This document shows, in pieces, positions 3,895 through 63,235 of a DNA stretch of 64,000 bases. Position numbers and translations under genes: made by a program. The notes under the pieces were generated by a model that did no database searches, was not told the origin of the DNA, and worked only from the letters and a program-made list of their open reading frames with translations. Source of the DNA: an uncultured delta proteobacterium (GTDB lineage: Bacteria > Desulfobacterota > GWC2-55-46); NCBI GenBank assembly GCA_963727865.1, contig CAVSHY010000014.1, forward strand, positions 38,236-102,235. Direction: 5' to 3'. The number at the start of each line of letters is the position of its first letter. Position 1 is the stretch's first letter.

Positions 3895-4228
3895 AAACGG
3901 ACGCGGGGAAACCTGTCTTTCTGAAGATGCATGGCGTTCACCTGCCCGAAGTTTACCGCGGGGAGCTTCAATGATCAGCCCTAAAAAACTTATTTTTAAT
4001 ACCCCGTCTCAAAAAAGACCCGGAAGAGGAACGAGTCTTCCTGAAAACCTGAATTGCCGGCAGGACGCCTTTTTTGCGGGCCGCCGGGACTCTGCTATAC
4101 TTGGTTCATAAATCTCCGTTTTGCGCAATCCGTTTTCAGCCGCACCAGCGAAATCGCATCCGGCGCTCCGTTGTAGATGAAGCCGTGCCTGAAACGTCTT
4201 ATTATTTTCCGTGAGAAGGAGGCATGTC

Positions 4229-7117: not shown

Positions 7118-7198
7118 CAGAGCGTGTTTTCCGGAAAGGAACTTTCCGCCTGAAAGTTTTCAAGAGCGCCCTTTAAAAAACGGAGGGGGGAGGGGAAA

Positions 7199-8107
7199 AT
7201 GCAGATAGGAATGATCGGCCTTGGCCGGATGGGCATGAACATGGCGCGTAGGCTCCTCATAAACGGCCACAGCGTGGCCGCGTATGACAGGTCAGGGGAT
7301 AAGGTCGGGGAGGCCGGGAGGGAAGGCGCCGCCCCGGTTTTTTCATTAAAGGAACTGGCGGATAAACTTTCAAAGCCGAGAGTCCTCTGGATCATGGTCC
7401 CGGCCGGGAAACCGGTCGATGATGCCATAGCGGAATTAAAGCGGCATCTATCCCCCGGGGATATTGTGATAGACGGGGGGAACAGCCGCTATACGGACGA
7501 CATCCGCCGGGAGGATGAGCTTAAGAAGGTAAATATAAATTACATGGATGCCGGGGTTAGCGGCGGCGTGTGGGGGCTTAAGAACGGATACTGCGTCATG
7601 GCCGGCGGCGAGAGGGAGCTTTTCGGGCATATCGAGCCGCTTTTAAAATCTCTCTGCGCGCCAGAGGGTTATCTCTACTGCGGCCCCATAGGCAGCGGGC
7701 ATTTCGTGAAGATGATCCATAACGGGATCGAGTACGGGATGATGCAGGCCTACGGCGAGGGGTTCGAGATCCTTAAAGCGTCGAGGTACGGCGAAGGGCT
7801 CGACTTCGCGGACGTGGCGCGGCTGTGGAACAGGGGAAGCGTAGTCAAGTCGTGGCTCCTCGAACTCCTTGAGAACGCGTTCAGGAAGGACAGGAACCTG
7901 GAGTCGATAAAGGGATACGTAGAGGACTCGGGCGAGGGAAGGTGGACGGCAATGGAGGCGATAGATCTCGCCGTAAGCGCGCCGGTCATAACCGAATCCC
8001 TTTACCGGAGGTTCCGCTCCAGGCAGGAGGAGTCTTTCTCGGAGAAGGTCCTGGCGGCCCTCAGGGCGGAGTTCGGCGGGCACGCTGTCAAACCTGAGCA
8101 TAAATAG
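7199..8107 (+). CDS. gnd: 6-phosphogluconate dehydrogenase (decarboxylating), short NAD-binding form
   Basis: 302 aa; [19 protein letters not shown] Rossmann N-terminus and 6PGD C-terminal domain; RBS GGAGGGGGG. Confidence 0.85.
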
Positions 8108-8130
8108 ATCTTTTAAACGGCGGGGGCTTT

Positions 8131-9720
8131 ATGTCGATAGGGGAAACAAAAATGGAGAAGGGAACGCCCGTAACGGCCGTGAGGGTCGGCGAGCTGGAAC
8201 TGACCGGAGAGCCGTGCGTGGAATTCTGCCCGCCGCCCTGCGGCGTAGTGATATTCGGGGCTTCCGGAGACCTCACCGCGAGGAAGCTCGTGCCTTCTTT
8301 TTATAATCTCACCAGAAACGGCCTCCTTCCGAAAAACTTTTTTATCATGGGCGCTTCCAGGACGAAGATGGATGACGAATCCTTCAGAAACGCCATGGAA
8401 GAGGCCGTAAGGACACACGCCAGGTTCGACGAATCCGTCTGGAAGGACTTCAGGAAGAGGCTTTTCTACAGGCCCGCCTCCGACATCAAATCTTTCGAGA
8501 ATATCAGGGAATCCCTGCTGGAGAAGGAAAAGGAGTTTGATACCCTTGGCAACAGGATATTCTACCTCGCGACCCCGCCCTCGGCCTATTCTGAGATCAT
8601 AGAATACCTGGGCGCCACCGGGATGTCCGAAGAAACAGGAGGCGGCTGGCCGCGCGTAGTAATAGAAAAACCTTACGGGAAGGACTTAAAGAGCGCCCTT
8701 GAACTGAACGAGGTGGTGCTCAGGAGCTTCGGGGAGGAACAGGTCTACAGGATCGACCATTACCTCGGCAAGGACACGGTGCAGAACATCATGATGTTCC
8801 GCTTCGCTAACGCCATATTCGAGCCGATCTGGAACAGGCGCTACATAGACCACGTCCAGATTACCGCCGCCGAGGAGATAGGCATCGAGAAGAGGGCCGG
8901 GTACTACGAGCAGGCCGGGGTGCTCCGCGACATGTTCCAGAACCATATGCTCCTGGTCATGTCTCTTGTCGCCATGGAGCCGCCTTCGGTCTACGAGGCC
9001 GATCTTGTAAGGGACGAAAGGGTCAAGGTCTTCAGGGCGCTAAGGCCCCTGCCGATGGATAACCTTTCAGATTCCCTTGTTACCGGCCAGTACGTGGCAG
9101 GCAAGGTCCGCGGCGGTTTCGTCCCCGGTTACAGGGAGGAAAAGGGTGTCGCGAAGGATTCGTCCGTGCCGACTTTCGCGGCGATGAAGCTTTATATAGA
9201 CAACTGGAGATGGCAGGACGTGCCGTTTTACCTCAGGTCGGGTAAAAGAATGGCGAAGCGGTTCTCCCAGGTTTATATCCAGTTTAAGCATGTGCCGCAC
9301 CTGATGTTCAAGAACACCATTAAAGAAGGGATCACGCCCAACGCCCTTGTTCTCAAGATCCAGCCCGATGAACGGGTACAGCTCAAGTTCCACACGAAAA
9401 ACCCGGGCTCAAGGGTGAGTCTGCGCGATGTGGTCATGGATTTTTCATACACTGAAGGATACAAGGGGATCATACTCGACGCGTACGACAGGATGCTCCT
9501 TGACTGCATGATCGGAGATAAGACCCTTTTTATCAGGAAGGACGGCGTGCGCCTCACGTGGGCGCTCCTGACCCCGGCGCTTGACCTCCTTGAAAAGGGC
9601 GGGCCCGGGGACGCGAGCAAAATTCCTGAACTCGGCATTTACAGGGCCGGGACCCTGGGGCCGGCCGAGGCCGACAGGTTCATCCAGAAGGACGGCAGGC
9701 GGTGGAATAATGACGACTGA
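8131..9720 (+). CDS. zwf: glucose-6-phosphate 1-dehydrogenase
   Basis: 529 aa; [14 protein letters not shown]-binding motif and RIDHYLGKD active-site motif. Confidence 0.95.
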
Positions 9721-10750: not shown

Positions 10751-11018
10751 CAGGTTGTTGGAAAAACAGTATTCTGGAGGAAACTTTCTGTAGAAAGGTT
10801 TCCCCCAGACCCCTTTCAAAGATTTTTAGCCGGAACCAAAAGTTTTTGGAGAGAGTTTGAGGTCCGTGCGGACGGCAATTTAACTCTTGGACGCTTACCC
10901 GTCACGTACGTTTTTGCTGAAACCTATGCTAAACAATTAGCCGTGCGCAGCACTTTTTACAAAAAGATTCTCTCAAAACACTTTTTCAACACCTGCCACG
11001 AAGCACGGGACAGGAAAA

Positions 11019-11765: not shown

Positions 11766-11934
11766 ATTCCCCGCGGCTTGCCGCGTATATAAAAATAGAT
11801 TTCCCTTCGGATACCCCGCAGCTTGCTGTGGGGAGATTCATGGTTAAAGCGTTAAGGGAGACTTTCAGAAGAGGAGAGTATTTTTTCGGGTTAGGCTCAG
11901 AAACCTTAAATTTTAAAACACGCCCGCGGGTCTG

Positions 11935-16007: not shown

Positions 16008-16125
16008 GAACGGGTGCTCACCGCAATCCCGCCGCTTTAGAGGCGGGATTGCGGCGAGCTATAAAAATGACAATCACCTTACCGTGAAGAATCCCCGTCA
16101 TTTATGGCGGGGTTCTTCAATCCGG
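16008..16125 (+). repeat. repeat family B copy (two hairpins flanking conserved ATAAAAATGACAATCACCTTACCGTGAAG core)
   Basis: Near-identical copies at 34422-34538 and 45712-45815, an inverted diverged copy at 37860-37990, and a degenerate copy at 16245-16378. Confidence 0.75.
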
Positions 16126-16551
16126 TCTTTTGTAAAATGAAAGAGATAAACCCGCGGCGATAGCCCCCTTGCGGATTGATTTTATAACAGGATTCTGATA
16201 AACTCCGGAATCGCGGTAAGGCTGAATGGGTGTGCCAGCCGCTCACCGCCGAAAGGCGAGCGGTTTTTCCATCCCGTCGCTTTAGCGGCGGGTCAAGGCT
16301 GGCAAATATAAATGATTATCCGTACCATCGAAATTCTCAGCCATTTATGGCGGAGGATTTTAATCTTCCCGGCAGCGTCAATGCTTATGTAATCCACAGT
16401 TCTAATCTTCCTTTAATCAACGCCGCGTTATAATGAAATATAAGGGAAAAATGCCTGTTAGACCGTGCCCGCGCGATTTGCGGGACGCGGGGGCGTCTAA
16501 AAGGAGTTGAAAAATGAGCGGAGGCGGCAGCGAGCGCGTTTTAACGGATGT

Positions 16552-21107: not shown

Positions 21108-21298
21108 AATTATTAATGTCTGTATTCCTAATGTCCTATTGATTAATTACTTTATTGAATGACAAATAGCGGCTCATTTTAATCCCCCCTTGCCCCCCTT
21201 TAAAAAAGGGGGGATTAAAGTCCCCCTTTGGAAAAGGGGGATTGAGGGGGATTTGATGCGATAGATGCTTGGGACATTAATTTTACAGTCTTCAATTA
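21108..21298. mobile_element. 191-bp MITE-like element, copy 1
   Basis: ~95% identical direct copy at 23116-23306. Imperfect terminal inverted repeats (ATTAATGTC / GGACATTAAT). Internal G/C-tract palindromes CCCCCCTTTAAAAAAGGGGGG and CCCCCTTTGGAAAAGGGGG. Confidence 0.6.
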
Positions 21299-21311: not shown

Positions 21312-22327
21312 CTACTTTACGAGGTAGGACCCGAGGGTCTCTCTTGTCCCCTCGAAAGTGGCGATAGTCTTCGCGCTCCAATCGGGTTTTACCCTGTATG
21401 CCGAAGGGGCCGCGTAGTAAGAGTCAACCGCCTCCCTCAGGACCCCTGTCATGGCGCTCACGTAACTTTTTGTCCGCTGCCTGCCTTCTATCTTGAAGGC
21501 GGCGGCTCCGGCCTCGATGAGATCGGGCACGATCCTGAGGATATTGAGCGACTCCGGGTCTTCAAGCACATATGAGACAGAGCCGTCGGGTTTGATGTAC
21601 CTTCCCTTGCAGCAGGTGGGGTAGGGCGAGGATTCCGTGGCGGAGAGCCTGTTCAGCAGAACGTTATTCAGCGTTATCGACATGCCGCCGTCCGGGTTAT
21701 TTATGAACCGGACGAAGCGAGAAGGGGAGCACGCCCCCGTGGTATTGGTCGACGCCCCTGTTACGAATGAAGAGAGGTAGCACCTCCCTTCGATGTTTAT
21801 GCAGAGGCCACCCTAGACGCGAAGACCTCTATCTCGACGTCGGTACGCTCCTTGAGTTCCTTTATCTCTTTTACGGTAAGGACGCGGGGGAGCACGACCC
21901 TTTTTATGCCGAAGTGCTTCTTATAGAAATTTATGCTTTCATAGTTGGACGCGCTTGCCTGGGTAGAGAGATGCAGGTTCGCGTCGGGGTATTTCTCCCT
22001 CGCGTATTTGAGTACTCCGAGGTTGGCTATTATGATCGCGTCCGCCTTGAGAGAGGCGGCCCTGTCCACGGCCGTAAACCACCTCGCGCAGGAATCCTCC
22101 TGGGGAAAGGTGTTTATGGCGACAAAGAATTTCCTGTTCTTCGCCCTTACGTATTTGATCCCTTCCTCAAGCTCCTTCGGGGTGAAATTGAGCCCCTCGA
22201 AGTTCCTCGCGTTCGTGTCGTCGTTGAAGCCGAGATATACGGCGTCGGCGCCGCTGTCTATGGCGGCCTTGAGAGAAGCGATATTCCCCGCCGGTGAGAT
22301 TACCTCGACTTTTTTCATGGTTTTCAA
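21312..22327 (-). pseudogene. peptidase U32 family, disrupted (frameshift near 21700-21800)
   Basis: The N-terminal 176 aa (21797-22327) has a U32 fold (..DAVYLGF..; ends EVFASRVASA*). The C-terminal part (21312-21683, ..AFKIEGRQ..) is in a different frame, and the expected HGALC..SGRC region is garbled. Confidence 0.55.
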
Positions 22328-22354: not shown

Positions 22355-22771
22355 TTAAAACGGCACGTCGTCTATGTCAGACGGCGGGATTTCGCCTGCC
22401 GGAGGCTCAGCAGGCGAAGCGGCGGCGCCGCCTTCTTTCGGGGCGCTCCCTAACATCTGCATGGTGTTGGCGACTATCTCGGTCATGTACTTTTTGTTGC
22501 CGTCCTTGTCGTCCCAGCTCCGGGTCTGGATCTTACCCTCGATATAGACCTGCTTGCCTTTCGCAAGATACTCGCCGCATATCTCGGCGAGTTTTCCGAA
22601 GGTCACGATCTTGTGCCACTCCGTCTTGGTCTCCTTCTGGCCGTCCTTATTTACCCTTGTTTCGCTTGTGGCGAGCCTGAAGTTCGCCACGGCGGTCCCG
22701 CTTGGCGCATAGCGTATCTCAGGGTCCGCCCCGAGATTCCCCACGAGAATAACCTTATTGATCCCGGCCAT
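22355..22771 (-). CDS. ssb: single-stranded DNA-binding protein
   Basis: [18 protein letters not shown].. OB fold, Gly/Pro-rich tail ending DDVPF (short form of the usual DD(I/D)PF acidic tip). Confidence 0.9.
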
Positions 22772-23115
22772 ATTGACTCCTTTTTTATACAGAGTGTCAT
22801 TACTGTGCATACCTTCGTTGTTCCTCAGCTCGTCGCTGTGGCGCACGGTAAAAGTGCGCCACACTCCTCGCCATCGTCACGCCTCGGTCTGCTTTGTTCT
22901 GACGCTCTGTATGCGCAATTATTTATGACGCCGTGTTTAATAATAATTACTTGAGCAACATATTTAAAGTTTAAAGCTTTTTATCTGAAAAACAATTTAC
23001 CACCCAATGAGGCTTTACGCAAGTTTTTTAAACTGAAAGTCTTTGGCCTTACCTTGCTTCAGAAGGGTAAGTAAGAATTATCTTCAATATTTTGTTAACT
23101 TGCCGTATTATAATG

Positions 23116-23306
23116 AATTATTGATGTCTGTATTTCTAATGTCCTATTGATTAATTGCTATTATTGAATGACAAATAGCGGCTCATTTTAATCCCCCCTT
23201 GCCCCCCTTTAAAAAAGGGGGGATTAAAGTCCCCCTTTGGAAAAGGGGGATTGAGGGGGATTTGATGCGATAGATGCATGGGACATTAATTTTACAGTCT
23301 TCAATT
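23116..23306. mobile_element. 191-bp MITE-like element, copy 2
   Basis: See copy 1; same orientation, 2008 bp downstream. Confidence 0.6.
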
Positions 23307-23354
23307 ATTTGATTCCAGTGCCAAAATTTAATTAAAGGGAAACAAAGCAAAACA

Positions 23355-25810: not shown

Positions 25811-26078
25811 CGGGGATATTTATGGGGGAAACTTTCTGGTTTTTTAAGGATATATTTAATCAAGCGCGGTTACAATCTTATGATTTTTTAAACGATAGGA
25901 GCTTGATTTACACGCGCTGAAAATCTCCCCCCGGACCCCCTTCAAAACATTTGGAAGATTAAGCGCGGCAAGCCGCGGGGAGTCTCAAGAAGTCTGAAAA
26001 GTATTGATAACCCTATGGAGCCGGTGTAGTATAAAAGACCGAAAGGGGATATCTATAGTATTACATGGAGATATTCAG

Positions 26079-27959: not shown

Positions 27960-28115
27960 CCACCTAAAATACCTTGGTTTTCCCGCTGACCCGGCTTCCT
28001 GAAGTAAAAAGAATTTACAAAAATCCGGATATCGTGTTATAATTGTTACAATTTGAATCCTGATAGTATTTTTGCGGGCAATTATAATGCTTACCGGAAC
28101 CTGCCTGCCCGTTAT

Positions 28116-28262
28116 GAAAATGCAACGCGAGCGCCCTGCCCGCTGCTTGCAGCGGGGTCAAGCGAGCGGATAGAATTTTTGAAGTCCTACGCGAGACGTC
28201 TCTAATTTTCAGGCGCCCCATGAAGGACTCTGAAAAATCCTTACATTTCGAAGATTCGCTGA
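28116..28262 (+). repeat. repeat family A copy (modular composite element)
   Basis: GAAAATGCAACGCGAGCGCCCTGCCCGCTGC..GCAGCGGGG hairpin module plus the AATAGAATTTTTGAAGTCCTACGCGAGACGTCTCTAATTTTCAGGCGCCCCATGAAGGA module. Copies at 30814-30985, 44285-44520 (inverted), 45368-45600, 58511-58640, 62868-62940 and 63040-63235, with partial copies elsewhere. Confidence 0.8.
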
Positions 28263-29803: not shown

Positions 29804-30093
29804 CCTCACCCCCCCTCACCCGGGCTACGCCGTAGCCTGTTTAACTTTGGAACTTTCACCTTTTCCGGTACATGTAAATATTTTTAGTATTCTTTTATAA
29901 AAAGGCGAGCGTACAATATTATAAAAATTTATTGGAATTTTTAAGGAAAATTTAATCTTTTAAGACGATAATGAAGCAAGTTGACCGCGTTTTTTCCGGG
30001 TGTGATCCCTTCGGGAGGAGGATTTTCAGTGTCCTTCGCGGAGCGCCTGAAAATTAGCGGAGTCCCGCGCAGGACTCCAAAAATATATTATAT

Positions 30094-30816
30094 ATGCGGT
30101 ACTACCCAGTATTCCTTGACATAACCGGCCGGTCCTGCGTCGTGGCGGGCGGCGGAGTTGTAGCGGAAAGAAAGGTTCAGGGGCTTCTCAAGGCCCGCGC
30201 TTCCGTTACCGTTATAAGCCCTCGAGTCACGAAGGTTTTAGAGAAACTCGCCCAAAACGGAACGATCCGCCTCATCAGAAGAAAGTATAAGAAAGGAGAC
30301 CTTCTCGAAGCGGCCGTAGTTATTTCCGCTACCGCCTCAAAGGCCGTAAACAAAGAAATATTTGAAGAGGCCGCCCGCTTAAAGACCCTCGTAAACGTCG
30401 TCGATGACCGCGCGAACTGTAACTTTATCGTCCCTTCGGTTATTGACAGGGGGGGCCTTATAATAGCGATATCCACTTCAGGAAAGGCGCCCGGGCTTGC
30501 CAGGAAGATTCGGGAAGACCTCGAAAGATATATAGGAAGCGAGTATGAAGATTTTACCTCCATCGCAGGGGCCGTAAGGAAGAAGTTGTTGAAAAATGAA
30601 GCAAATCATGATAAAAAGAAAAGAGTTATCGAGGCCTTGGCGGATTCGCCGATCCTTGATTGGCTGAGGCGGGGAGATAGAGAGGTCAGGGAGATAAATT
30701 CTTTTCTTAAAGGGCTTCTCGGAGCCGGGTTTACTCTGTCGAGGCTCGGGGTCAAATTAAAAACCGGCCCTAAAGTGTCTAAAACAACAAAACCTAAAAA
30801 GGGGACAGGGGTCTGA
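30094..30816 (+). CDS. precorrin-2 dehydrogenase / sirohydrochlorin ferrochelatase (SirC/CysG N-terminal-like)
   Basis: MRYYPVFLDITGRSCVVAGGGVVAERKV Rossmann N-terminus typical of siroheme synthase N-domain. Confidence 0.7.
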   Translation: MRYYPVFLDITGRSCVVAGGGVVAERKVQGLLKARASVTVISPRVTKVLEKLAQNGTIRLIRRKYKKGDLLEAAVVISATASKAVNKEIFEEAARLKTLVNVVDDRANCNFIVPSVIDRGGLIIAISTSGKAPGLARKIREDLERYIGSEYEDFTSIAGAVRKKLLKNEANHDKKKRVIEALADSPILDWLRRGDREVREINSFLKGLLGAGFTLSRLGVKLKTGPKVSKTTKPKKGTGV

Positions 30817-31027
30817 AAATGCATGCGAGCGCCCTGCCCGCTGCTTTCAGCGGGGTCAAGCGAGCGAATAGAACTTTTAAAGTCCTACGCGAAACGCCGC
30901 TGATTTTCAGGTTCTCCATAAAGGACTCTGAAAAAACTTACATTTGGAAGATTCCCCGCAGCTTGCCGCGGGGAGCTTCAAATGCCGCGCCTTCGAAATG
31001 TGATCGCGCCGGATTTCTCCGATTATA

Positions 31028-33269: not shown

Positions 33270-34212
33270 TTGAAAAAGATCACGATCGGAACGCGCGGCA
33301 GCATGCTCGCGCTCTGGCAGGCGAACTGGGTAAAGTCGGAGATAGAAAAAAGAAACCCCGGCCTTGAAGTCGCCCTCGAGAAGATAAAAACCACCGGGGA
33401 TAAGATAACCGATGTCCCGCTCGCGATGGTAGGGGGGAAGGGGCTTTTCGTAAAGGAGATAGAAGAGGCCCTCCTTTCCGGCAAGGCCCAGCTCGCCGTC
33501 CACTCGATGAAGGACGTGCCGACGATATTCCCCGAGGGCCTTCATCTCAAGGCCATAACCGAGAGGGAAGACCCGAGGGACGCTCTTTTCAGCAGAAATG
33601 ATATAAAGCTACTCGACCTCCCGAAAGGGGCGCGGATAGGCACTTCGAGCCTGAGAAGGCAGGCGCAGATACTGAATAAGAGGCCTGATTTTCAGATACT
33701 TCACCTGAGGGGCAACCTCGATACCCGCATGAAGAAGCTCGATGAAGGGCGACTTCGACGCCATAATACTCGCGGGGGCCGGCGTAAAGAGGCTCGGATG
33801 GGCAAGTAGGATCACCGAATTCATCCCGCCGGAAGTCAGCCTTCCGGCGATAGGCCAGGGGGCGCTCGGCATAGAGACCCGCACCGAAGATAAATTCATA
33901 AACGGCCTTGTAGAGTTCTTTAACCATCCTGAGACCTCTGCGGCCGTAAGGGCCGAACGGGCGCTGTTAAAGAGGCTCGAGGGCGGGTGCCAGGTCCCGA
34001 TCGCGGCTTACGGAGAAGTCAAGGGCGAGAGCCTCAGGCTTACGGGCCTTGTCGCGTCCACCGACGGGAAGACCATCGTAAAAGACGTAATCACCGGGGA
34101 TAGGGACGAGGCAGAGGCCATTGGGGTAACTCTCGCCGAAAAGCTCCTCAAGATGGGGGCATGGGATATCTTAAAAGACCTCTACGAAGTAAACCCTCCG
34201 GGCGGGGCGTAA
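33270..34212 (+). CDS. hemC: porphobilinogen deaminase (hydroxymethylbilane synthase), +1 G in GGG run near 33745
   Basis: IGTRGS.LALWQA.. N-terminus. Frame switch between ..[12 protein letters not shown] and [16 protein letters not shown]; removing one G gives the canonical [13 protein letters not shown]. Confidence 0.85.
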
Positions 34213-34421: not shown

Positions 34422-34538
34422 TGAACGGGTGCTCGCCGCAATCCCGCCGCTTTAGAGGCGGGTCAAGGCGAGCTATAAAAATGACAATCACCTTACCGTG
34501 AAGAATCCCCGTCATTTATGGCGGGGTTCTTCAATATG
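34422..34538 (+). repeat. repeat family B copy
   Basis: Near-identical to 16008-16125 and 45712-45815. Confidence 0.75.
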
Positions 34539-36311: not shown

Positions 36312-36543
36312 GAGCTATATATACCCTAACACACACTGTTTAGTTGTCCGATTTGTCAAATAAAAACGTAGGGTTGAATGAAGGCCCTATGTTTGGCCGA
36401 TGGAGGCACGTATAACTAATTTCCAATATCAAAGATACCCCTCTTTGTCAAGAGTTATAAGGACGGCGCCGATGGACTAAGGGCGTATTGAAAATGCAAC
36501 GCGGGCGCATCCCCGGAGTTTGCCGCGTAAACTTCAATCTTAA

Positions 36544-37859: not shown

Positions 37860-37990
37860 ATTTTTGGATTGAAGAACTCCCGCATAAATGCCGGAGTTCC
37901 CGATGGTAAGGTATGTCATTTATATTCGCCGCGCCTTGACCCGCCCGGCCTTTTAAGGGCGGGCAAGGCGGGCGTTCCATTCACCGCACA
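37860..37990 (-). repeat. repeat family B copy (inverted orientation, diverged, compensatory stems) between cbiA and the ThiC-family gene
   Basis: On the - strand the core ATATAAATGACATACCTTACCATCG is flanked by hairpins CGCCTTGCCCGCCC..GGGCGGGTCAAGGCG and GAACTCCGG..CGGGAGTTC. Other copies have GAATCCCCG..CGGGGTTC at the same position. Confidence 0.6.
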
Positions 37991-43189: not shown

Positions 43190-43400
43190 CGACCCTCTCC
43201 CTCGGAAGGCCCTACTCCATACGGTCAGGCAGGTCTCCTGGCTCGCGGGTCATCCTACTCTCTTTTCCTTCCCGGCCCTGTCGGCCAGTGGCAGTTAGAT
43301 AAGATTTCGTCGCCGCTTACAGTTGCGGGGCAGCTCCCGATTCTACGGGATTCCCTTTTGGCCCGGTTGCCGGGCACCTGACAGCGAGTAATCAGATTTA
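43190..43400 (-). ncRNA. cobalamin (AdoCbl) riboswitch aptamer
   Basis: On the - strand AAGGGAATCCCGTAGAATCGGGAGCTGCCCCGCAACTGTAAGCGG ... CTGCCACTGGCCGACAGGGCCGGGAAGG: the conserved GGGAA/UCC, GCCCCGCAACUGUAA and B12-box GCCACUG ... GGGAAGG elements are in canonical order. Confidence 0.8.
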
Positions 43401-43456: not shown

Positions 43457-44254
43457 CTATTTCCCCCGCACACCCTCGTCAAGGAACTTTCTTACGGCCT
43501 CCACGCTCCTCTGGATCATGTTTTCTCCATGAGGCTCCACGGTATATACGGGTTCATTGGGGCAGGCTTTAAGGAACTTGAAAAAAGACCCGAAGTCGAT
43601 CGTGCCTTCCCCGACCGGAAGGTGGTCGTCAAGTTTACCGAAATTATCGTGGAGATGCACTTCCGCTATGAAAGGCCCCAGCTCTTTAAACCATTCCTCG
43701 ATATCCACTTTTGAGAATATCCGCAGGTGCCCGGAATCTATGCAGACCCGAAAGTTCGGGGAATTGATCCTCGCGACGAGCATCTTGAGCGTATCGGGTG
43801 TTTTTTCAAATATGTTCTCGGCGGCTATGACGGCGTCGAGCCTTTCGGCCTCTTTTACGAAGCGGGGCCATGTCTTAAGGCTCTGCTCAAGCCAGAGGCC
43901 GGCGTCTCCGCGGTAACGCCTTTCGTTGTACCCGGCGTGCAACACAACGTTTCGCGGCCTCAGCCAGGAAACGACTTCAAAAACCCTCTTATACCTCTCT
44001 ACCGTGGAAAGCCGTTGATTTTCATCGGCGCTTCCGGGGTTAATATCTATATACGGCCCGTGCATCGTAACCCGCAAAGAGCGCTTCCCGAACTCCTCCC
44101 TTATTTCCATGAGGTCCCCGGGGTCGGCGGTCTCCAGGAACCGGCCGTCGATATACACTTCCGGGTTTATGCCCATGTCAAGGATATCTCCAAGCCTCTC
44201 AAGGAGAAGAGGGTAGGGTATATGAACCTGAATTTTTTTTTCTTCCACTTTCAA
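43457..44254 (-). CDS. sugar phosphate isomerase/epimerase (xylose-isomerase-like TIM barrel, AP endonuclease family 2)
   Basis: 265 aa; TIM-barrel pattern with metal-ligand His/Asp/Glu positions (..VHLHDN.., EPHGE). Confidence 0.65.
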   Translation of the reverse strand: MKVEEKKIQVHIPYPLLLERLGDILDMGINPEVYIDGRFLETADPGDLMEIREEFGKRSLRVTMHGPYIDINPGSADENQRLSTVERYKRVFEVVSWLRPRNVVLHAGYNERRYRGDAGLWLEQSLKTWPRFVKEAERLDAVIAAENIFEKTPDTLKMLVARINSPNFRVCIDSGHLRIFSKVDIEEWFKELGPFIAEVHLHDNFGKLDDHLPVGEGTIDFGSFFKFLKACPNEPVYTVEPHGENMIQRSVEAVRKFLDEGVRGK

Positions 44255-44284
44255 CCGGTTAGGTTTTTGTCGAGTTTTTTGGAG

Positions 44285-44520
44285 TTTGAAGCTCCCCGCA
44301 GCTTGCTGCGCTTAATCTTCCAAATGTAAGTTTTTTCAGAGTCCTTTATGGAGAACCTGAAAATAAGCGGCGTTTCGCGAAGGACGTTAAAAATATCCTT
44401 CATGGGGCGCCTGAAAATGAGAGACGTCTCGCGTAGGACTTTAAAAATTCTATTCGCTCGCTTGACCCTGCTGCAAGCAGCGGGCATGGCGCTCGCGTTG
44501 CATTTTCAATAACGATTAAA
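44285..44520 (-). repeat. repeat family A copy (inverted)
   Basis: Reverse complement of the 45368-45600 arrangement; the six-frame ORF 44251-44487 inside it is judged spurious. Confidence 0.8.
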
Positions 44521-44723
44521 TCGGAAAAACAGATATTCTTCAAGGGAAATATAAGAAGGATTAAAAATTATAGCGATTCATGTGAAATGTTTTTTCTCTG
44601 CTATACTTCTCTATATTAATAAAAGAAGAGAGGACGCGATTATATCCCGAAATGCGGATAATCGCCAGTTCAGTGGAAGCGTCGAAGATAGAAGGAGATA
44701 AAAAAACAGGGAGGAGAAAAGGG

Positions 44724-45308
44724 ATGAAAAAAATACCGGTTTTTATCATTGCGGGAATTTTTTCTTTAAGCCTCGCGGCCAAAACCGAGGCCGCTCAAAG
44801 AGGGATAAAATCGATGTCCAGGGAAAAGCTCATAGCCCTCGCGATGAGCGCGGCCCCGCCGCGGATATCGAAGGACGCGACCATCATGATACCGGGGGCG
44901 GACGGAAAACTTGTCGAGGCCCGGAAGGGGACGAACGGGTTCACCTGCATCCCTGATATCGACGGCCAGGAGGTCCCTGATCCGATATGCGCGGATGAGG
45001 CCGCAACGCAATTCCTTATGGACATGATGAATAAAAAGGAGAAGCCGACCAATACGGCCCCAGGCGTCGCATACATGGCAAAAGGGGGATGGCACTGGGA
45101 AAAGGACGGAAAGGTGGTCATGAATACGGGGGAGGCCGGGGCAAAAAGAGTAAGTGAGCCGCCCCACTGGATGATTTTCTGGTCTTTTGACCCGGGTAAG
45201 ACTATGCTCCCGACCATACCGGGGAAATTCGGGACGTATATCATGTTCGAGAAAACGCCTTATGCCCATTTAATGGTATATCAGGACCCCGGAAAGTTAA
45301 CAAAGTAA
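44724..45308 (+). CDS. secreted hypothetical protein
   Basis: MKKIPVFIIAGIFSLSLAAKTEAA signal peptide; no recognisable domain. Confidence 0.45.
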   Translation: MKKIPVFIIAGIFSLSLAAKTEAAQRGIKSMSREKLIALAMSAAPPRISKDATIMIPGADGKLVEARKGTNGFTCIPDIDGQEVPDPICADEAATQFLMDMMNKKEKPTNTAPGVAYMAKGGWHWEKDGKVVMNTGEAGAKRVSEPPHWMIFWSFDPGKTMLPTIPGKFGTYIMFEKTPYAHLMVYQDPGKLTK

Positions 45309-45367
45309 ATATATCTGACAGGACGCGTAAAGGCCCGTTTTAGGGGAGGCTTTTGTTTTTTTAGCTG

Positions 45368-45600
45368 AAAATGCAACGCGAACGCCCTGCCCGCCGCAAG
45401 CAGCGGGATCAAGCGAGCGAATAGAATTTTTGAAGTCCTACGCGAGACGTCTCTAATTTTCAGGCGCCCCATGAAGGATATTTTTAACGTCCTTTGCGAA
45501 ACGCCGCTTATTGTCAGGTTCTCCATAAAGGACTCTGAAAAAACTTACATTTGGAAGCTTCCCCGCAGCAAGCTGCGGGGAAGCTTCCAAATTTTTGACT
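45368..45600 (+). repeat. repeat family A copy (full modular set)
   Basis: Modules A, B, C and D in order; the best reference copy. Confidence 0.8.
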
Positions 45601-45711
45601 CGATGGCTTTTAAAAGCTTCTGTGTCATTTTAAAACATCGGGTCGCCGGTTAATGTACCGGCTGCAACCGCCGGATCCGGGGGAGGGGGGGAAAAGATGA
45701 GTTATCTCTGA

Positions 45712-45815
45712 GGGTGCGCCGCAACCGCCGCTTTAGAGGCGGGCAAGGCGAGCTATAAAAATGACAATCACCTTACCGTGAAGAATCCCCGTCATTTATG
45801 GCGGGGTTCTCAATT
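45712..45815 (+). repeat. repeat family B copy
   Basis: See 16008-16125. Confidence 0.75.
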
Positions 45816-45949
45816 TCATATTAACGTTTGCTCCCGTTGTATCCGCCATTCAGACCGCCGCGATTCAGCGTGAGAAATAATAAAAAAGGGGCCGCGGCTA
45901 AAGCCGCGGCCCCGTCTGCCTTCCCTGTTTGACTGCGTAACCGATAAAT

Positions 45950-51748: not shown

Positions 51749-51924
51749 AAAATTCGGTCTATCCTTAGATGGCGTTAGCCATGCCTGATGGCTTGAGTTT
51801 TCAGTAAGAGATAATTATACGGGCAGAGCGTTTACAGATAGGTTACGGATTGAAAATGCGTAGCGAGAGCCCTGCCCGTAGCAAGCCGCGCTTAATCTTC
51901 AAAGGCCAACCCCGGATTCTTTCT

Positions 51925-52365: not shown

Positions 52366-52626
52366 TTGTGTAAATTCTTGAAGGGTGAAAAAAGGGGCAC
52401 ACCTCCTATTAAGATATTTGTTACGTTAATCAGGACAACTTGCGTGATCGAGCGGTTGAATAAGGAGTTTAAGCGCAGGACAAACCCGATGGAGATAGTG
52501 GCCGCTCAAAACGCCTGCTACGGTCTGCTCGCATTCATGGCGCTTCAGATGGAGTTAAGCCGGCGGACAACGCCCGTGGATAAGGCGCGCCCCAATTTGC
52601 CCTTTTATGGAATACGCGGAAAATAG
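52366..52626 (+). mobile_element. IS-transposase C-terminal fragment (IS256/mutator-like)
   Basis: IERLNKEFKRRTNPMEIVAAQNACYGLLAF resembles the conserved C-terminal block of IS256-family transposases; no DDE core is present, so this is a remnant. Confidence 0.45.
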
Positions 52627-52807
52627 TTGACACTGCCAATTCAATATGTTAATAAACAGGCACAGCACTTGATTTTTAATTCAGCGGGGACTTCTCATCT
52701 GTAAAGGCGGGGATGCGAGCTATTTTCTTTGTAACAGGACGAGCGTAGCCCGCAGCCAAAAGTTCCACGGCTGTAAAGCCGTGGGTATCTATTATGTAAT
52801 CTTACAA

Positions 52808-54244
52808 ATGTCAGCTAGGGAGTGCCGGAAGGTGCGTTTACGTAGCCGCTCATCCATCATAAAGGGCTTAAGGATAACCCTCTATCTCTTTTCAGCCCTG
52901 TTCTTATTCTGCTTTTATCCCGGGATGAAAGAGGCGGACGCCGGTTCTCTCGTCTCTGTCGCGCCGGAGGGTGCGTCGCCTTATGTGACCGTTGACATTA
53001 CGGGCACCGGGTTTGACCCGGTCGCGTCAAACAACAAGGTCATTTTCACGGACGCGTCGGGGGTCTCCGCGGCAAATACCCCGAGAACCGTTATTTCCAT
53101 AGACCCCGGGTCCAACTTAAGCCGCCTCGCGGTCCCGGTCCCCGGGAGCCTCCCTTACGGGAGGGCCGCCATAAAGGTCATTAACAATACGACAGGGGAG
53201 GGAATTGACGGACTTTCAATCGACGTCGTAGGCATAACGCTTGAGGAGATGACGCCGGCGGCGAAGGGGACGAACCTCGATGTCCGCATCGCGGGGACCC
53301 CGAACTTAAGGTTTGTGGCCGGAGAGACGGTGGCGTCTTTCGGAGAAGGAGTTAAGATAAATTCAGAAACCGTCGAGTCCCCGACGAGCATCGTGGCGAA
53401 TATTACGGTATCCCCCTCAACCGAAGCCGGAACGAGAAGCATCGGAGTGATGACAAAGGACCAGACGGCGGTCCTTCTCTACGGGTTTACCGTCGAGTCC
53501 AGGGGTCTGCCCGCTTTCGCGACCGCGAGCGCCCCGCTGGAAGTAAACCCGGCGGCGGCTCCGGCTCCGCCAATAGAAATGGACCACGGCGCCGGCGTAA
53601 TCGTCAGGGATTACGGAGATACTTTTTTTTACAGCCAGCTCGGCGCAGAGTCCTGCGAGGCGCCCCCGGCCATGACCATGACGGCGTATAACGCCGGAGT
53701 ACCCGCGTCTTACGCTGAGAATAAGACTCTTGGCGCATCCGGGAAGAACCCTCCGGCGCAACCGAAATCCTCGAGTTCCGATGATAAAGAATTTATCGCC
53801 TTCGCGGAACATAACGGCTCCGCGGGGCGGTCAGCCGATGGCTCGGAGGCCGCGCCTCTCGCGTCTGCCGGAGACAGCGGCGCTAAAAATCCTGTTGTTA
53901 AAGACGCCCCTGTAAGTAGCACGCCCGCCCGTCACGCCGCGGCCGCGCCTCTCGCGTCTGCCGGAGACAGCGGCGCGAAAAATCCTGTTGTTAAAGACGC
54001 CCCTGTAAGTAGCACGCCCGCCCGTTACGCCGCGGCCGAACCTGGCATCAGTCCCGTTGGGGCGGCGATCCCCGCTCAGGCGCTTACGACGGCTGTGAAG
54101 AACCCCGGGGGCCTTGTCGAGTCGATCCTTCCATGGTCGCCCTTCGGGCAGGACGGAGAAGGCGGCGTCATGAGAAGAATGTTACTCGCGTTTCTCGCGC
54201 CCTTCATCCTCATCGGATACCTGATATTCATCTTTTGGAGATAA
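52808..54244 (+). CDS. large secreted protein with two IPT/TIG-like repeats, a 30-aa near-perfect tandem duplication and C-terminal hydrophobic anchor
   Basis: Signal peptide; TVDITGTGFDP..NKVIF-type TIG strands; 90-bp units at 53850-53939 and 53940-54029 differ by 2 nt; C-terminus GEGGVMRRMLLAFLAPFILIGYLIFIFWR. Confidence 0.5.
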   Translation: MSARECRKVRLRSRSSIIKGLRITLYLFSALFLFCFYPGMKEADAGSLVSVAPEGASPYVTVDITGTGFDPVASNNKVIFTDASGVSAANTPRTVISIDPGSNLSRLAVPVPGSLPYGRAAIKVINNTTGEGIDGLSIDVVGITLEEMTPAAKGTNLDVRIAGTPNLRFVAGETVASFGEGVKINSETVESPTSIVANITVSPSTEAGTRSIGVMTKDQTAVLLYGFTVESRGLPAFATASAPLEVNPAAAPAPPIEMDHGAGVIVRDYGDTFFYSQLGAESCEAPPAMTMTAYNAGVPASYAENKTLGASGKNPPAQPKSSSSDDKEFIAFAEHNGSAGRSADGSEAAPLASAGDSGAKNPVVKDAPVSSTPARHAAAAPLASAGDSGAKNPVVKDAPVSSTPARYAAAEPGISPVGAAIPAQALTTAVKNPGGLVESILPWSPFGQDGEGGVMRRMLLAFLAPFILIGYLIFIFWR

Positions 54245-56607: not shown

Positions 56608-57057
56608 ATGACATATTCGAAACAACGGATGCGAATGCGGGGAAGGGTTCTGAAAACAGTTTTTCCGGACATCAAAGGCTTCACGCGGTCTGAAGCGGGG
56701 AGCCTCAAGAGAACGGTTCTCCTCGCCGCCGCCGTCTTGATATTTTCCGGCTGCGGCGCCACTAACCGCGAAGAATTGCAGCGGTGGCTCGATAGCAGGA
56801 TCGGGCAGATGACGTACGACGACGCCCTGGTGAAATGGGGGGCGCCGAAGTCGGTCGCGCAGGGCGATAAGATATTCGTCGTCAGGTGGGAAAAGAAATA
56901 TACCGAGACGATAAGGGAGCCGTACCCGATGCCGTATCCCTACCCCTGGTACCGCCGCCATTTTATCACAAGGCGGATAGTCCACGGCTGGGAGCTTCAG
57001 CTTTATTTTGACAGGACGTCGAGAAAACTTGAAAATTACAGATATACCGAATGGTAA
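56608..57057 (+). CDS. hypothetical lipoprotein
   Basis: Signal peptide with lipobox FSGC; no recognisable domain. Confidence 0.35.
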   Translation: MTYSKQRMRMRGRVLKTVFPDIKGFTRSEAGSLKRTVLLAAAVLIFSGCGATNREELQRWLDSRIGQMTYDDALVKWGAPKSVAQGDKIFVVRWEKKYTETIREPYPMPYPYPWYRRHFITRRIVHGWELQLYFDRTSRKLENYRYTEW

Positions 57058-58510: not shown

Positions 58511-58640
58511 CGGGCTGTGAAAATGCAACGCGAGACGCCTCTCCTTTTCTGGCGCCCCATAAAGGACTCTGAAAAAACTTACATTTGGAAGATTCCCGGC
58601 AGCTTTTCTGCGGGGAGCTTCAATCTTTTCCCCGATCTGC
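58511..58640 (+). repeat. repeat family A copy
   Basis: Modules A, C and D. Confidence 0.75.
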
Positions 58641-61586: not shown

Positions 61587-61694
61587 AAGCTTAGCAATGG
61601 CACAAAGATACGTCCACCTGATGCCGTCGCATAAAAATACTAGTGGCAGGACGCTCGGGTTAGAGATTTAACGGGGTTGTTTTCAAAAAATCCC

Positions 61695-61895
61695 CATGCG
61701 TATGGTGAACAGCGCGTAAGAATGGAGGAAGGGCGAGCGAGCCGGGGCAGCGCGAGCGAAGCGATCTTAAGCGGCGAGTGAGGAGGGCTGGAGGCAGTAG
61801 CGCCAGAGAATCTCTATCCCGAAGCGCACGGTTAGCGCGCAAAAGGCTCTTAAGCAGGGGGCGGATACATACTGGATTGCGCGTTGTTCACCCTC
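61695..61895. mobile_element. ~200-bp MITE-like element related to repeat family C
   Basis: Terminal inverted repeats TGGTGAACAGCGCG ... CGCGTTGTTCACC; interior GCGAGCCGGGGCAG..GGCTGGAGGCAGTAGCGC matches the middle unit at 1490-1600. Confidence 0.55.
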
Positions 61896-62867: not shown

Positions 62868-63235
62868 TGAAAATGCAACGCGAGCGCCCTGCCCGCTGCA
62901 GCGGGGAGCTTCAAAAACCTTTTTTGGGGGGAACTTTCTGTTTTTTTAGCGGATATATGCTGACTCAATAGCTTTTAAATTCCGTGTCATTTATAAACAT
63001 TGGGCCGCCGGTTAATTAACCCGGCTCACGCGAAGGACTCCAAAAAAAAGATGGTTTATGCGCTGAAAAATTTCCCCCAGACCCCCTTCAAAGATTTTTA
63101 AAGTCCTGCGCGAGACCCCGCTCTTTTTCAGGCGCCCCATGAAGGATATTTTTAACGTCCTTCGCAAAACGCCGCTTATTTTCAGGTTCTCCATAAAGGA
63201 CTCTGAAAAAACTTACATTTGGAAGTTTTCCGCGG
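62868..63235 (+). repeat. two adjacent repeat family A copies/modules
   Basis: Module A at 62868-62940; modules E, B and C at 63040-63235; six-frame ORF 63012-63194 judged spurious. Confidence 0.75.

Follow-up and report, generated by a model that had tools for sequence, protein, structure and literature searches.

What kind of element is the hairpin-rich repeat that recurs between the genes of an uncultured delta proteobacterium, and how do its copies come to lie where they do? The question is raised by the sequence at 45366-45595 in a stretch of 64,000 nucleotides from this organism (GenBank assembly GCA_963727865.1, contig CAVSHY010000014.1, positions 38,236 to 102,235), hereafter called the window. 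In a preliminary description, the repeat (family A) was compared both to repetitive extragenic palindromic sequences and bacterial interspersed mosaic elements (REP/BIME) and to transposable elements of the miniature inverted-repeat type (MITEs). The first comparison, and with it the picture of an interspersed, modular, hairpin-rich and non-coding element, is supported by our analysis, whereas the MITE label was abandoned, since the ends share only TGAA/TTCA and the one site at which filled and empty states can be compared has no target duplication. In addition, we identified three features that had been missed, namely sharp TGAA...TCAA boundaries, a likeness to the ends of IS200/IS605 insertion sequences (IS), and a sister family (family S). 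We lean, with reserve, towards regarding families A and S as a lineage-specific, non-autonomous family resembling the palindrome-associated transposable elements (PATEs), i.e. as gene-less derivatives of an IS200/IS605-type single-strand DNA transposon.

A repeat search of the window, together with sensitive blastn searches of the focal copy against it, gave approximately 15 family A copies (full, partial or minimal) and five sister-family copies in 64 kb, where none is expected by chance. All copies listed earlier were recovered (28115-28262, 30813-30981, 44286-44508 on the minus strand, 45366-45595, 58518-58623, 62868-62914, and 63065-63235), as were the fragments (10793-10828, 25919-25988, 36489-36538, and 51851-51902), and additional pieces were found at 3922-3971, 11810-11841, and 56682-56708, as well as a lone inverted B unit at 30023-30084. 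When module cores were counted against dinucleotide-preserving shuffles, TGAAAATGCAACGCGAGCGCC gave 6 matches with at most three mismatches (0.00 expected), GCGGGGAGCTTCAA gave 11 with at most two mismatches (0.89 expected), and the B core gave 6 (0.01 expected). Across 7.4 kb at 98.7% identity, an independent assembly of this species (L015, GCA_041643115.1) has the same three copies in place, and a Logan contig (L016) ends within a copy, at 28143; the repeats are therefore no assembly artefact.

A complete copy begins with TGAA, followed by approximately 20 nt (AATGCAACGCGAGCGCCCTG), hairpin 1 (CCCGCTGC-TT-GCAGCGGG), and TCAAGCGAGCGAATAGAA; after a variable cargo it ends with CTTACATTTGGAAGATT, hairpin 2 (CCCCGCAGC-TT-GCYGCGGGG), AGCT, and TCAA, with a conserved CTTAC..GGAAGATT block preceding hairpin 2. 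In short form, the left end reads TGAA..hairpin 1..TCAAGCGAGCG and the right end GGAAGATT..hairpin 2..AGCTTCAA. In the focal full-length copy (45366-45595, plus strand), delimited by repeat search and alignment, TGAA occupies 45366-45369, the left segment 45370-45389, and hairpin 1 45390-45407, with TCAAGCGAGCGAATAGAA starting at 45409; the interior consists of a B core (45435-45478), a C core (45489-45532), and a linker. The right end of this copy (45549-45592) is a further hybrid event in which one arm was turned into the reverse complement of the other, so that the hairpin became a 44-nt perfect palindrome and the TCAA terminus was lost. Conservation starts at (Y)TGAA (with TGGA, TGTA, and TCAA as variants) and stops right after TCAA (with TCAT as a variant) in nearly all complete copies, and the flanks beyond are unrelated; such abrupt divergence at both borders was seen in at least 15 copies from five sources. 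The inverted identity of the two ends is limited to TGAA/TTCA, sometimes TTGAA/TTCAA (4-5 nt), the ends being otherwise unrelated in sequence, so that there are no true terminal inverted repeats. Each end instead has one subterminal hairpin, and the two hairpins are in direct orientation, hairpin 1 beginning 17-20 nt from the left boundary and hairpin 2 ending 8 nt from the right boundary.

The shuffling of modules proposed earlier is borne out by an alignment of nine copies, in which module A opens the copy at the 5' end, a 54-nt module then occurs zero to two times, and a linker leads to module D at the 3' end. Modules B and C, previously described as two sub-repeats, are indeed repeated but are variants of this one 54-nt unit. 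The cargo is of several kinds, comprising B only, C only, B and C, none (in the phage-like contig L017), or approximately 150 nt of unrelated DNA (in L009), and module E stands in place of module A in two copies. In the minimal copies of 47-52 nt (62868, 36489, 3922, 51851, and L010 2252-2303), the left segment is accompanied by a single hairpin and the AGCTTCAA tail. The lone B unit at 30023-30084, which has short inverted ends of its own, suggests that B/C is probably a small repeat in its own right that is carried inside the element. Copies range from 47 to 230 nt and are too short to encode a transposase; the overlapping open reading frames (ORFs) are spurious and without family matches, and the false small ORFs mentioned in the preliminary description are real (e.g., 44251-44487 and 45281-45526). 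Its suggestion that the copies are recombination hotspots gains indirect support from the hybrid and terminal-only copies (58518, 62868, and 45549-45592); with the copy at 51851, the hybrids point to frequent recombination among copies.

Family S shares this architecture. In its complete copy at 34424-34534 (plus strand), TGAA is followed by 17 nt ending in CAAT, hairpin 1, and TCAAGGCGAGCTATAAAAAT, and the right end consists of GAAT, hairpin 2, TTCT, and TCAA. The repeat search showed a second complete copy at 16009-16120 (plus strand), with a divergent S-type copy downstream of it at 16271-16363. A copy just downstream of the focal copy (45700-45813, plus strand) lacks part of its left end and 1 nt before TCAA, and a divergent but complete S-type copy lies on the minus strand at 37866-37985, directly after TGAA at the junction of an upstream cobalamin-operon gene and thiC. 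The inner flanks of the two families are homologous (TCAAGGCGAGCTATAAAAAT in S versus TCAAGCGAGCGAATAGAAT in A; CTTACCGTGAAGAAT versus CTTACATTTGGAAGATT), whereas the hairpins and the outer left segment differ. Based on the common architecture and the homologous inner flanks, A and S make up one superfamily. Of its 20 copies, 17 are on the plus strand (p = 0.0026 versus 0.5). Five (30023, 36489, 51851, 62868, and 63065) are antisense to both neighbouring genes, and copy orientation is therefore not dictated by the direction of transcription.

The hairpins are conserved as structures, with compensatory changes keeping the stems of both paired. In a 13-sequence right-end alignment, 86% of the cells in the 9-bp stem of hairpin 2 were paired, and compensatory double changes were present in five of the nine stem pairs, with A-U, G-C, and C-G occurring at one position. 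The covariation score of this alignment was reached by none of 500 shuffles, and slid controls for the whole tested structure were 31-56% paired. Counted by hand, the stems of 22 hairpins from both ends were Watson-Crick paired in 157 of 180 cells. Covariation across copies is thus present in the stem of hairpin 2 and absent from the B/C units, whose sole stem (terminal, 5 bp, -6.9 kcal/mol) shows no compensatory change.

Comparisons with relatives indicate how the copies arrived. The genes for a sirohaem-synthase-like protein and CcsB abut or overlap in five relatives (L010-L014; CcsB 77-84% identical), and the same spacer is occupied by one copy in the window and one in L009 (CcsB 85% identical). 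The window copy begins at the upstream stop codon, 46 nt before the ccsB start, and the L009 copy ends 5 nt before the ccsB start; because positions, flanks, and cargo all differ, these are two independent insertions. At the thiC junction, an empty site is provided by L039 (9930-10030; ThiC 87% identical), in which the upstream CbiA-family gene stops 3 nt before the thiC start. In the window, the complete S-type copy at 37866-37985 lies between GGTGAA and TCCAAAAATCAGAGGAGCTATTGATG, where it has replaced the last codons of the homologous cobalamin-operon gene; in-silico removal of the copy restores an in-frame gene end with a stop codon overlapping the thiC start (TGATG). No target duplication was found at this filled/empty site, the sole resolvable pair (from genomes approximately 87% identical at the protein level), and no direct repeats were seen in the flanks of approximately 15 copies. 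The earlier statement that all copies are intergenic is nearly right, the exceptions being this sister copy and the family A copy at 30813, where the gene upstream takes its stop codon from the TGA of the element (30814-30816).

The family is not confined to the window, and local duplication alone does not account for its modules, which recur in a metagenome contig (L007), in two related metagenome-assembled genomes (MAGs; L009 and L010), and in L017, apparently a podovirus-type phage fragment, encoding a Phage_stabilise protein and a pectate-lyase-like protein and holding a core copy without B/C. In the 1440-2040 region of L007, a full-length copy lies between two tRNA genes, identified by eye, and stops 3 nt short of the second of them (anticodon GTA, read as tRNA-Tyr); a prfB gene with a programmed frameshift site is located upstream. 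Scans of public genome and metagenome contigs with the B/C core gave mostly chance matches, the copy in L007 being the sole true one, and in viral-collection scans L017 was the only true find, other matches being due to chance. The family was not found in approximately 110 kb of syntenic sequence from more distant relatives (L026-L028 and L037-L039), in which a single occurrence of module E in L037 was the only module found. BLAST searches against plasmids and phages gave no match, nor did the five module sequences in the searchable literature. As Rfam likewise has no match, the family itself is undescribed, while the kind of element is already known.

That kind is defined by the PATEs, which were described in Haloquadratum walsbyi (PMC3119063); PATE-like elements of Geobacillus stearothermophilus are mobilised in trans by a single TnpA (PMC10055086). 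We base the assignment on the match to the published PATE definition (PMC3119063), with which our families share the lack of terminal inverted repeats, a palindrome near each terminus, the lack of target duplication, a length insufficient for a protein-coding gene, a short oligonucleotide conserved at the terminus, and interiors that vary between copies. The PATEs also have ~52-bp terminal-only versions, formed by deletion between two similar near-terminal palindromes, and other small repeats insert into them (PMC3119063); both traits have a counterpart here in the ~50-bp terminal-only copies and in the small repeats inserted inside. The present families differ from PATEs in that neither a parent IS200/IS605 element nor its TnpA turned up in the window and fetched loci, in their host, an uncultured Deltaproteobacteria/Thermodesulfobacteriota lineage, in a cargo that includes zero to two tandem copies of a 54-nt unit, and in the loss of left-end guide/target complementarity from most family A copies.

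From the anatomy, the sharp ends without target duplication, the conserved hairpins, the independent insertions, and the restricted phylogenetic range, we infer a transposase and a single-strand mechanism. Both top-strand hairpins would be recognised, as single-stranded DNA, by a Y1 (HUH) transposase whose gene lies elsewhere in the genome, and base pairing with the tetranucleotide 5' of each foot would lead the enzyme to its cleavage sites. The element would be excised as a single-strand circle and re-inserted 3' of a TGAA with no target duplication. Recombination between the two similar hairpins could yield the terminal-only copies of approximately 50 nt, and recombination between modules could yield the hybrids, while effects on neighbouring genes, such as supplied stop codons and hairpins in untranslated regions, would be side effects.

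The pairing step was evaluated against IS608, whose ends and 'peel and paste' mechanism were taken from PMC3201880, PMC5934647, and PMC5027513. The subterminal imperfect palindromes of IS608 are accompanied by a left cleavage and target site, TTAC, outside the element and 19 nt 5' of the left hairpin foot, and by a right cleavage site, TCAA, within the element, at 10 nt on the 3' side of the right foot; guides of four bases (GL AAAG, GR GAAT), located 5' of the feet, pair with the cleavage sites as C1:G2, C2:G1, and C4:G4, and two purines (AG) 3' of the right hairpin form base triples (PMC3201880, PMC5934647). The right ends in our families read GATT (family A) or GAAT (family S), hairpin, AGCT or TTCT, and TCAA. 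Thus, IS608 and family S share the guide GAAT, for which family A has GATT; an imperfect palindrome follows, in family A with the purines AG just 3' of the hairpin foot, and then the terminal TCAA. At the left, a conserved tetranucleotide likewise lies outside the element, 17-20 nt 5' of the foot, and insertion occurs 3' of it with no duplication. In contrast to IS608, the terminal TCAA ends 8 rather than 10 nt from the hairpin foot, the target is TGAA rather than TTAC, the GC-rich hairpins have stems of 8-9 bp in which no extrahelical T is obvious, and neither tnpA nor tnpB was seen in the window and fetched loci.

At the right end, the three IS608 pairing positions were paired in 37 of 39 cells, and paired double changes were observed at 11810 (GATA/TCAT) and 16326-16363 (AATT/TTAA). 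At the left end, all three pairs were present in family S (TGAA, 17 nt, CAAT) and in two L010 copies, L010a (TGAA, 19 nt, CATT) and L010b (TCAA, 19 nt, GATT). Over 23 nt, the only differences between L010a and L010b are at the two positions predicted to be partners; since both lie on the same side of the hairpin, a palindrome does not account for the changes. As read from the sequences, this is suggestive of a guide/cleavage-site base-pairing rule in these elements.

Several results weigh against a PATE-like identity. No Y1 transposase or TnpB gene was found in the 64-kb window or in the fetched element-bearing loci (including L009, L010, and L015). The left-end rule fails in family A of the window, where the guide CCTG forms one of three pairs with TGAA (two of three in the 44286 copy), and also in L007, L009, L017, and the S copy at 37866. 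The right-end complementarity also largely fits an extended imperfect palindrome, TTTGGAAGATT..AGCTTCAAA (82% paired), which is perfect in the 45549-45592 copy. On core stem pairs, 5 G.T and 5 A.C mismatches were counted, i.e. no strand asymmetry; an apparent excess of G.T over A.C (16:3) came from one inherited outer position and was gone on these pairs. A top strand lying preferentially on the lagging-strand template would be expected of an IS200/IS605 derivative, but the orientation bias does not differ significantly from the plus-strand share of coding bases (65%; p = 0.097). The copies are not recent, as their pairwise identity is only 82-96%, and there is no insertion polymorphism between the two 98.7%-identical strains over 7.4 kb, thus no sign of current activity. 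The inverted pair 44286/45366 with the 218-aa gene between its copies was considered as a composite transposon, and the gene as one for a REP-associated tyrosine transposase (RAYT); a transposase was rejected, since the gene product has a signal peptide, is predicted to be secreted, and has no family match. This gene (44652-45308; no Pfam or NCBIfam match) is bracketed by the two most similar full-length copies and may have been gained or lost as a unit.

The same Y1 HUH enzymology would apply if the repeats were of REP/BIME type and kept by a domesticated single-copy RAYT, with TTGAAGCTCCCCGC..GCGGGGAGCTTCAA as the basic REP and the longer copies as BIME-like mosaics, which might serve in mRNA stabilisation or nucleoid organisation. 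The REP/BIME sequences of enterobacteria and pseudomonads are likewise intergenic, combine GC-rich palindromic units and short motifs into mosaics, probably rely on a Y1 HUH enzyme in trans, and have a four-base motif 5' of the hairpin foot. Lone palindromic units without other modules (11810, 56682, and L010 12172-12209), the mosaic composition, the strictly intergenic location, the high copy density, and a conserved tetranucleotide 5' of the foot, comparable to GTAG in REPs, all agree with such an origin. The GTAG rule was reportedly set out for REPs by Ton-Hoang and by Messing in 2012, yet no GTAG is present here, the four bases being GATT, GAAT, or CCTG. Moreover, the left and right ends are asymmetric and in direct orientation, not inverted pairs as in REP doublets forming hairpins (REPINs), the sole inverted pair of copies being 857 nt apart. 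A conserved flanking tetranucleotide, cargo of up to ~150 nt, one copy in a phage contig, which is unusual for host-maintained REPs, and the lack of any observed RAYT gene also speak against a REP/BIME identity, which we regard as unlikely. Short inverted-identical ends (TGAA/TTCA, sometimes TTGAA/TTCAA), together with a size and intergenic location typical of MITEs, could instead point to a classical MITE moved by a DDE transposase (e.g., IS256-, IS5-, or IS630-type) via short TTGAA...TTCAA repeats, and a weak IS256/Mutator-family remnant lies at 52366-52626, ~460 nt from the 51851 copy. The inverted identity covers only 4-5 nt, where at least ~10 bp would be expected, and the ends are otherwise unrelated; no target duplication is present at the resolvable site or in the flanks of ~15 copies; and the remnant scores below the Pfam cut-off (16.8 versus 21 bits), with no matching ends and no link to the family. 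A DDE-mobilised MITE is thus extremely improbable. In layout, the copies resemble the pneumococcal BOX elements (boxA - boxB(n) - boxC), which also have three parts with fixed terminal modules, a central unit of ~45-54 nt in variable tandem number, an intergenic location, and extensive predicted secondary structure. BOX ends are presumed to serve a DDE transposase as inverted repeats. The sequences of BOX and of the present copies are not similar, and in our families the central unit can be missing or replaced by unrelated DNA.

A role at the RNA level, in which the copies would belong to mRNAs or be small RNA genes, with hairpins acting as attenuators, terminators, mRNA stabilisers, or protein-binding sites and their function rather than mobility explaining the conservation, would fit the compensatory changes that keep the hairpins and the co-orientation of most copies with neighbouring genes. 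It would also fit the -10-like TAGAAT/TATAAA after hairpin 1 (read from the sequence by eye) and the palindrome at 45549-45592, which with its T run resembles a bidirectional terminator. Compared with shuffled sequence, whole copies are more stably folded (z = -4.3 and -5.4), equally so on both strands, which shows only their richness in palindromes. The 45549-45592 palindrome is the only structure that qualifies as an intrinsic terminator (GC-rich hairpin and U/T run), since the canonical right end leads into AGCTTCAA and variable sequence, and a U tract is missing from hairpins 1 and 2 in every copy except one. A search of 44200-45900 against Rfam 15 at E up to 10 gave generic hairpin matches only, the best being PyrG leader on the palindrome (42.7 bits versus a cut-off of 65 bits). 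With no Rfam family, no compensatory pair in the weakly folding B/C units, and five copies antisense to both neighbours, the attenuator and mRNA-stabiliser roles suggested in the preliminary description are without support here. Presence or absence of copies also varies at orthologous sites between close relatives and in unrelated gene contexts, which fits insertion better than a locus-specific regulator, and we consider an RNA-level function very unlikely as the explanation of the family. Published PATEs 'often encode omega RNAs' (PMC10055086). By analogy, an omega RNA or right-end RNA (reRNA) scaffold for a TnpB/IscB-type nuclease of this lineage, acting in trans, might reside in the conserved stretch of 60-150 nt that leads up to the right terminus (B/C, CTTACATTTGGAAGATT, and hairpin 2), an idea to which we give very little credence. 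Each copy would then be an 'orphan guide', with its 3' flank as the guide and TGAA as the transposon-adjacent motif (TAM); dozens of genomic sites would be programmed for homing or regulation, and a modular scaffold with tandem units would be new.

Some other candidate functions were considered and dropped. For sigma-70 or sigma-54 promoters, the candidate -35/-24 bases fall in variable hairpin loops and no site was predicted inside the copies. A Shine-Dalgarno role of the right-end GGGGAG was rejected, its distance to the start codon being 5 to >60 nt, and a small protein from the B-C ORF was dismissed since there is no ribosome-binding site and the frame is kept only by the lack of indels. 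The CRISPR-repeat likeness of the CCCCGC..GCGGGG hairpin was set aside, as there is no array.

The remaining family A copies of the window illustrate the PATE-like architecture and its erosion. The inverted full-length copy at 44286-44508 (minus strand) has the left end, B, C, and the right end, is 93% identical to the focal copy, and ends 32 nt upstream of a minus-strand xylose-isomerase-like TIM-barrel gene (Pfam AP_endonuc_2); the left arm of its hairpin 2 is degenerate (AAGCGCAGC). The copy at 30813-30981 (plus strand), located between the sirohaem-synthase-like gene and ccsB, is complete with one C unit and has the right end GATT, hairpin, AGCT, and TCAA. A left end, B unit, linker, and degenerate right-end hairpin make up the copy at 28115-28262 (plus strand), which lies downstream of the PilB-like ATPase gene and occupies the same site in strain L015. 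In the hybrid copy at 58518-58623 (plus strand), 61 nt upstream of bcsG, a 5' TGAAAATGCAACGCGAG is joined directly to a B-type unit via a common ACGCGAG, followed by the linker and a complete right end. In the copy at 63065-63235 (plus strand), module E replaces the left end and precedes B, C, and the linker, and the right-end hairpin is replaced by a T-rich stretch. Module E is also found at 25919-25988 (plus strand, upstream of the PilB-like gene), followed by a linker and right end (GATT, AAGCGCGGCAAGCCGCGGGG, AGTC, TCAA), and alone at 10793-10828 (plus strand), a repeat match to the module that occurs in the more distant L037 as well.

Smaller pieces are more diverse. In the minimal terminal-only copy of 47 nt at 62868-62914 (plus strand), the right-end tail AGCTTCAA is joined to a left end with the left arm of hairpin 1. 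Terminal-only copies are also located at 36489-36538 (plus strand), between two minus-strand genes and thus antisense to local transcription, and, in divergent form, at 3922-3971 (plus strand; TGAAGATGCATGGCG...CCGCGGGGAGCTTCAA), while the terminal-only or hybrid copy at 51851-51902 (plus strand) has a left end joined to the reverse complement of the left flank of the right end. The lone right-end unit at 11810-11841 (plus strand) reads GATA, CCCCGCAGCTTGCTGTGGGG, AGAT, and TCAT, guide and terminus being both changed and still complementary. The lone B-type unit at 30023-30084 (minus strand) is bounded by ATTTTTGGAGTCCT...AGGACACTGAAAAT, with no left- or right-end modules attached. At 56682-56708 (plus strand), a divergent, right-end-like hairpin ends in AGCCTCAA; its membership of the family is uncertain. 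A further module, F (TGACTCRATRGCTTTTAAA..GTGTCATTT..AAACATYGGG.CGCCGGTTAAT), is present at 45596-45663 and 62961-63026 (81% identical), following the family A right end immediately at the first site and after ~45 nt at the second; the intergenic regions therefore house repeat families beyond A and S.

The window has a GC content of ~53% and no tRNA genes, and the nearest relatives in databases are MAGs that bear the label Deltaproteobacteria or Thermodesulfobacteriota. Among its genes are those for c7-type cytochromes, a PilB-like ATPase, ThiC, BcsG, and haem and cobalamin biosynthesis. The sole gathering-score Rfam match is a cobalamin riboswitch at 43211-43396 (minus strand, 122 bits), which lies between the xylose-isomerase-like TIM-barrel gene and a cobalamin salvage operon and fixes the local direction of transcription. 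Other repeats were also observed. A gene for single-stranded DNA-binding protein (SSB; 22355-22864) and a shortened piece of a Peptidase_U32 gene (21312-21683) lie between two 147-nt direct repeats (21152-21298 and 23161-23307) that are 99% identical and 2009 nt apart. L027, a syntenic relative, has a complete U32 gene (336 aa) right beside ssb, which suggests a rearrangement or insertion at this locus in the lineage of the window; the L015 contig begins within the second repeat. Upstream of the transketolase gene, three ~104-nt repeats (1167-1741; 75-85% identical, spaced 231 and 184 nt) with associated 56-nt and 47-nt repeats, one of which recurs at 61682-61728, have no gathering-score Rfam match and could be a tandem structured leader or another mobile repeat. 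A 93-nt tandem duplication (53848-54033; 98% identical) gives an in-frame 31-aa repeat in a 487-aa ORF (52781-54244) with no Pfam match.

Among coding sequences, hemC (porphobilinogen deaminase; 33270-34212) is split by a frameshift into overlapping ORFs (33270-33809 and 33742-34212), due to an assembly error or because it is a pseudogene; in relatives it is a single gene of 313 aa. The 86-aa ORF at 52366-52626, with a weak match to the C-terminus of Mutator/IS256-family transposases that falls below the cut-off (PF00872, E = 0.003), is probably left over from a decayed IS. In L037, downstream of thiC (7100-8200), four or five tandem genes for hydrophobic peptides of 32-37 aa, each with its own ribosome-binding site and terminator-like hairpin, look like a small-peptide gene array; the array is absent from the window.

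If the PATE-like reading of families A and S is correct, no new kind of biology is opened, as the elements would be genomic parasites of a known kind; the points of interest are two sister families with one architecture, the BOX-like modular cargo, and the copy in a phage. An uncultured, multihaem-cytochrome-rich lineage of Deltaproteobacteria/Thermodesulfobacteriota would then carry an expanded family of single-strand-transposon derivatives that insert right after TGAA, often overlapping the TGA stop codon of a gene, and that can split translationally coupled genes and rewrite the C-termini of proteins. Metagenome assemblies would break at the copies, and false small ORFs would enter the annotation. 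The family would also provide a marker for tying phage contigs to this host, and its variants would form a natural set of guides and cleavage sites for studying how Y1 transposases choose their targets.

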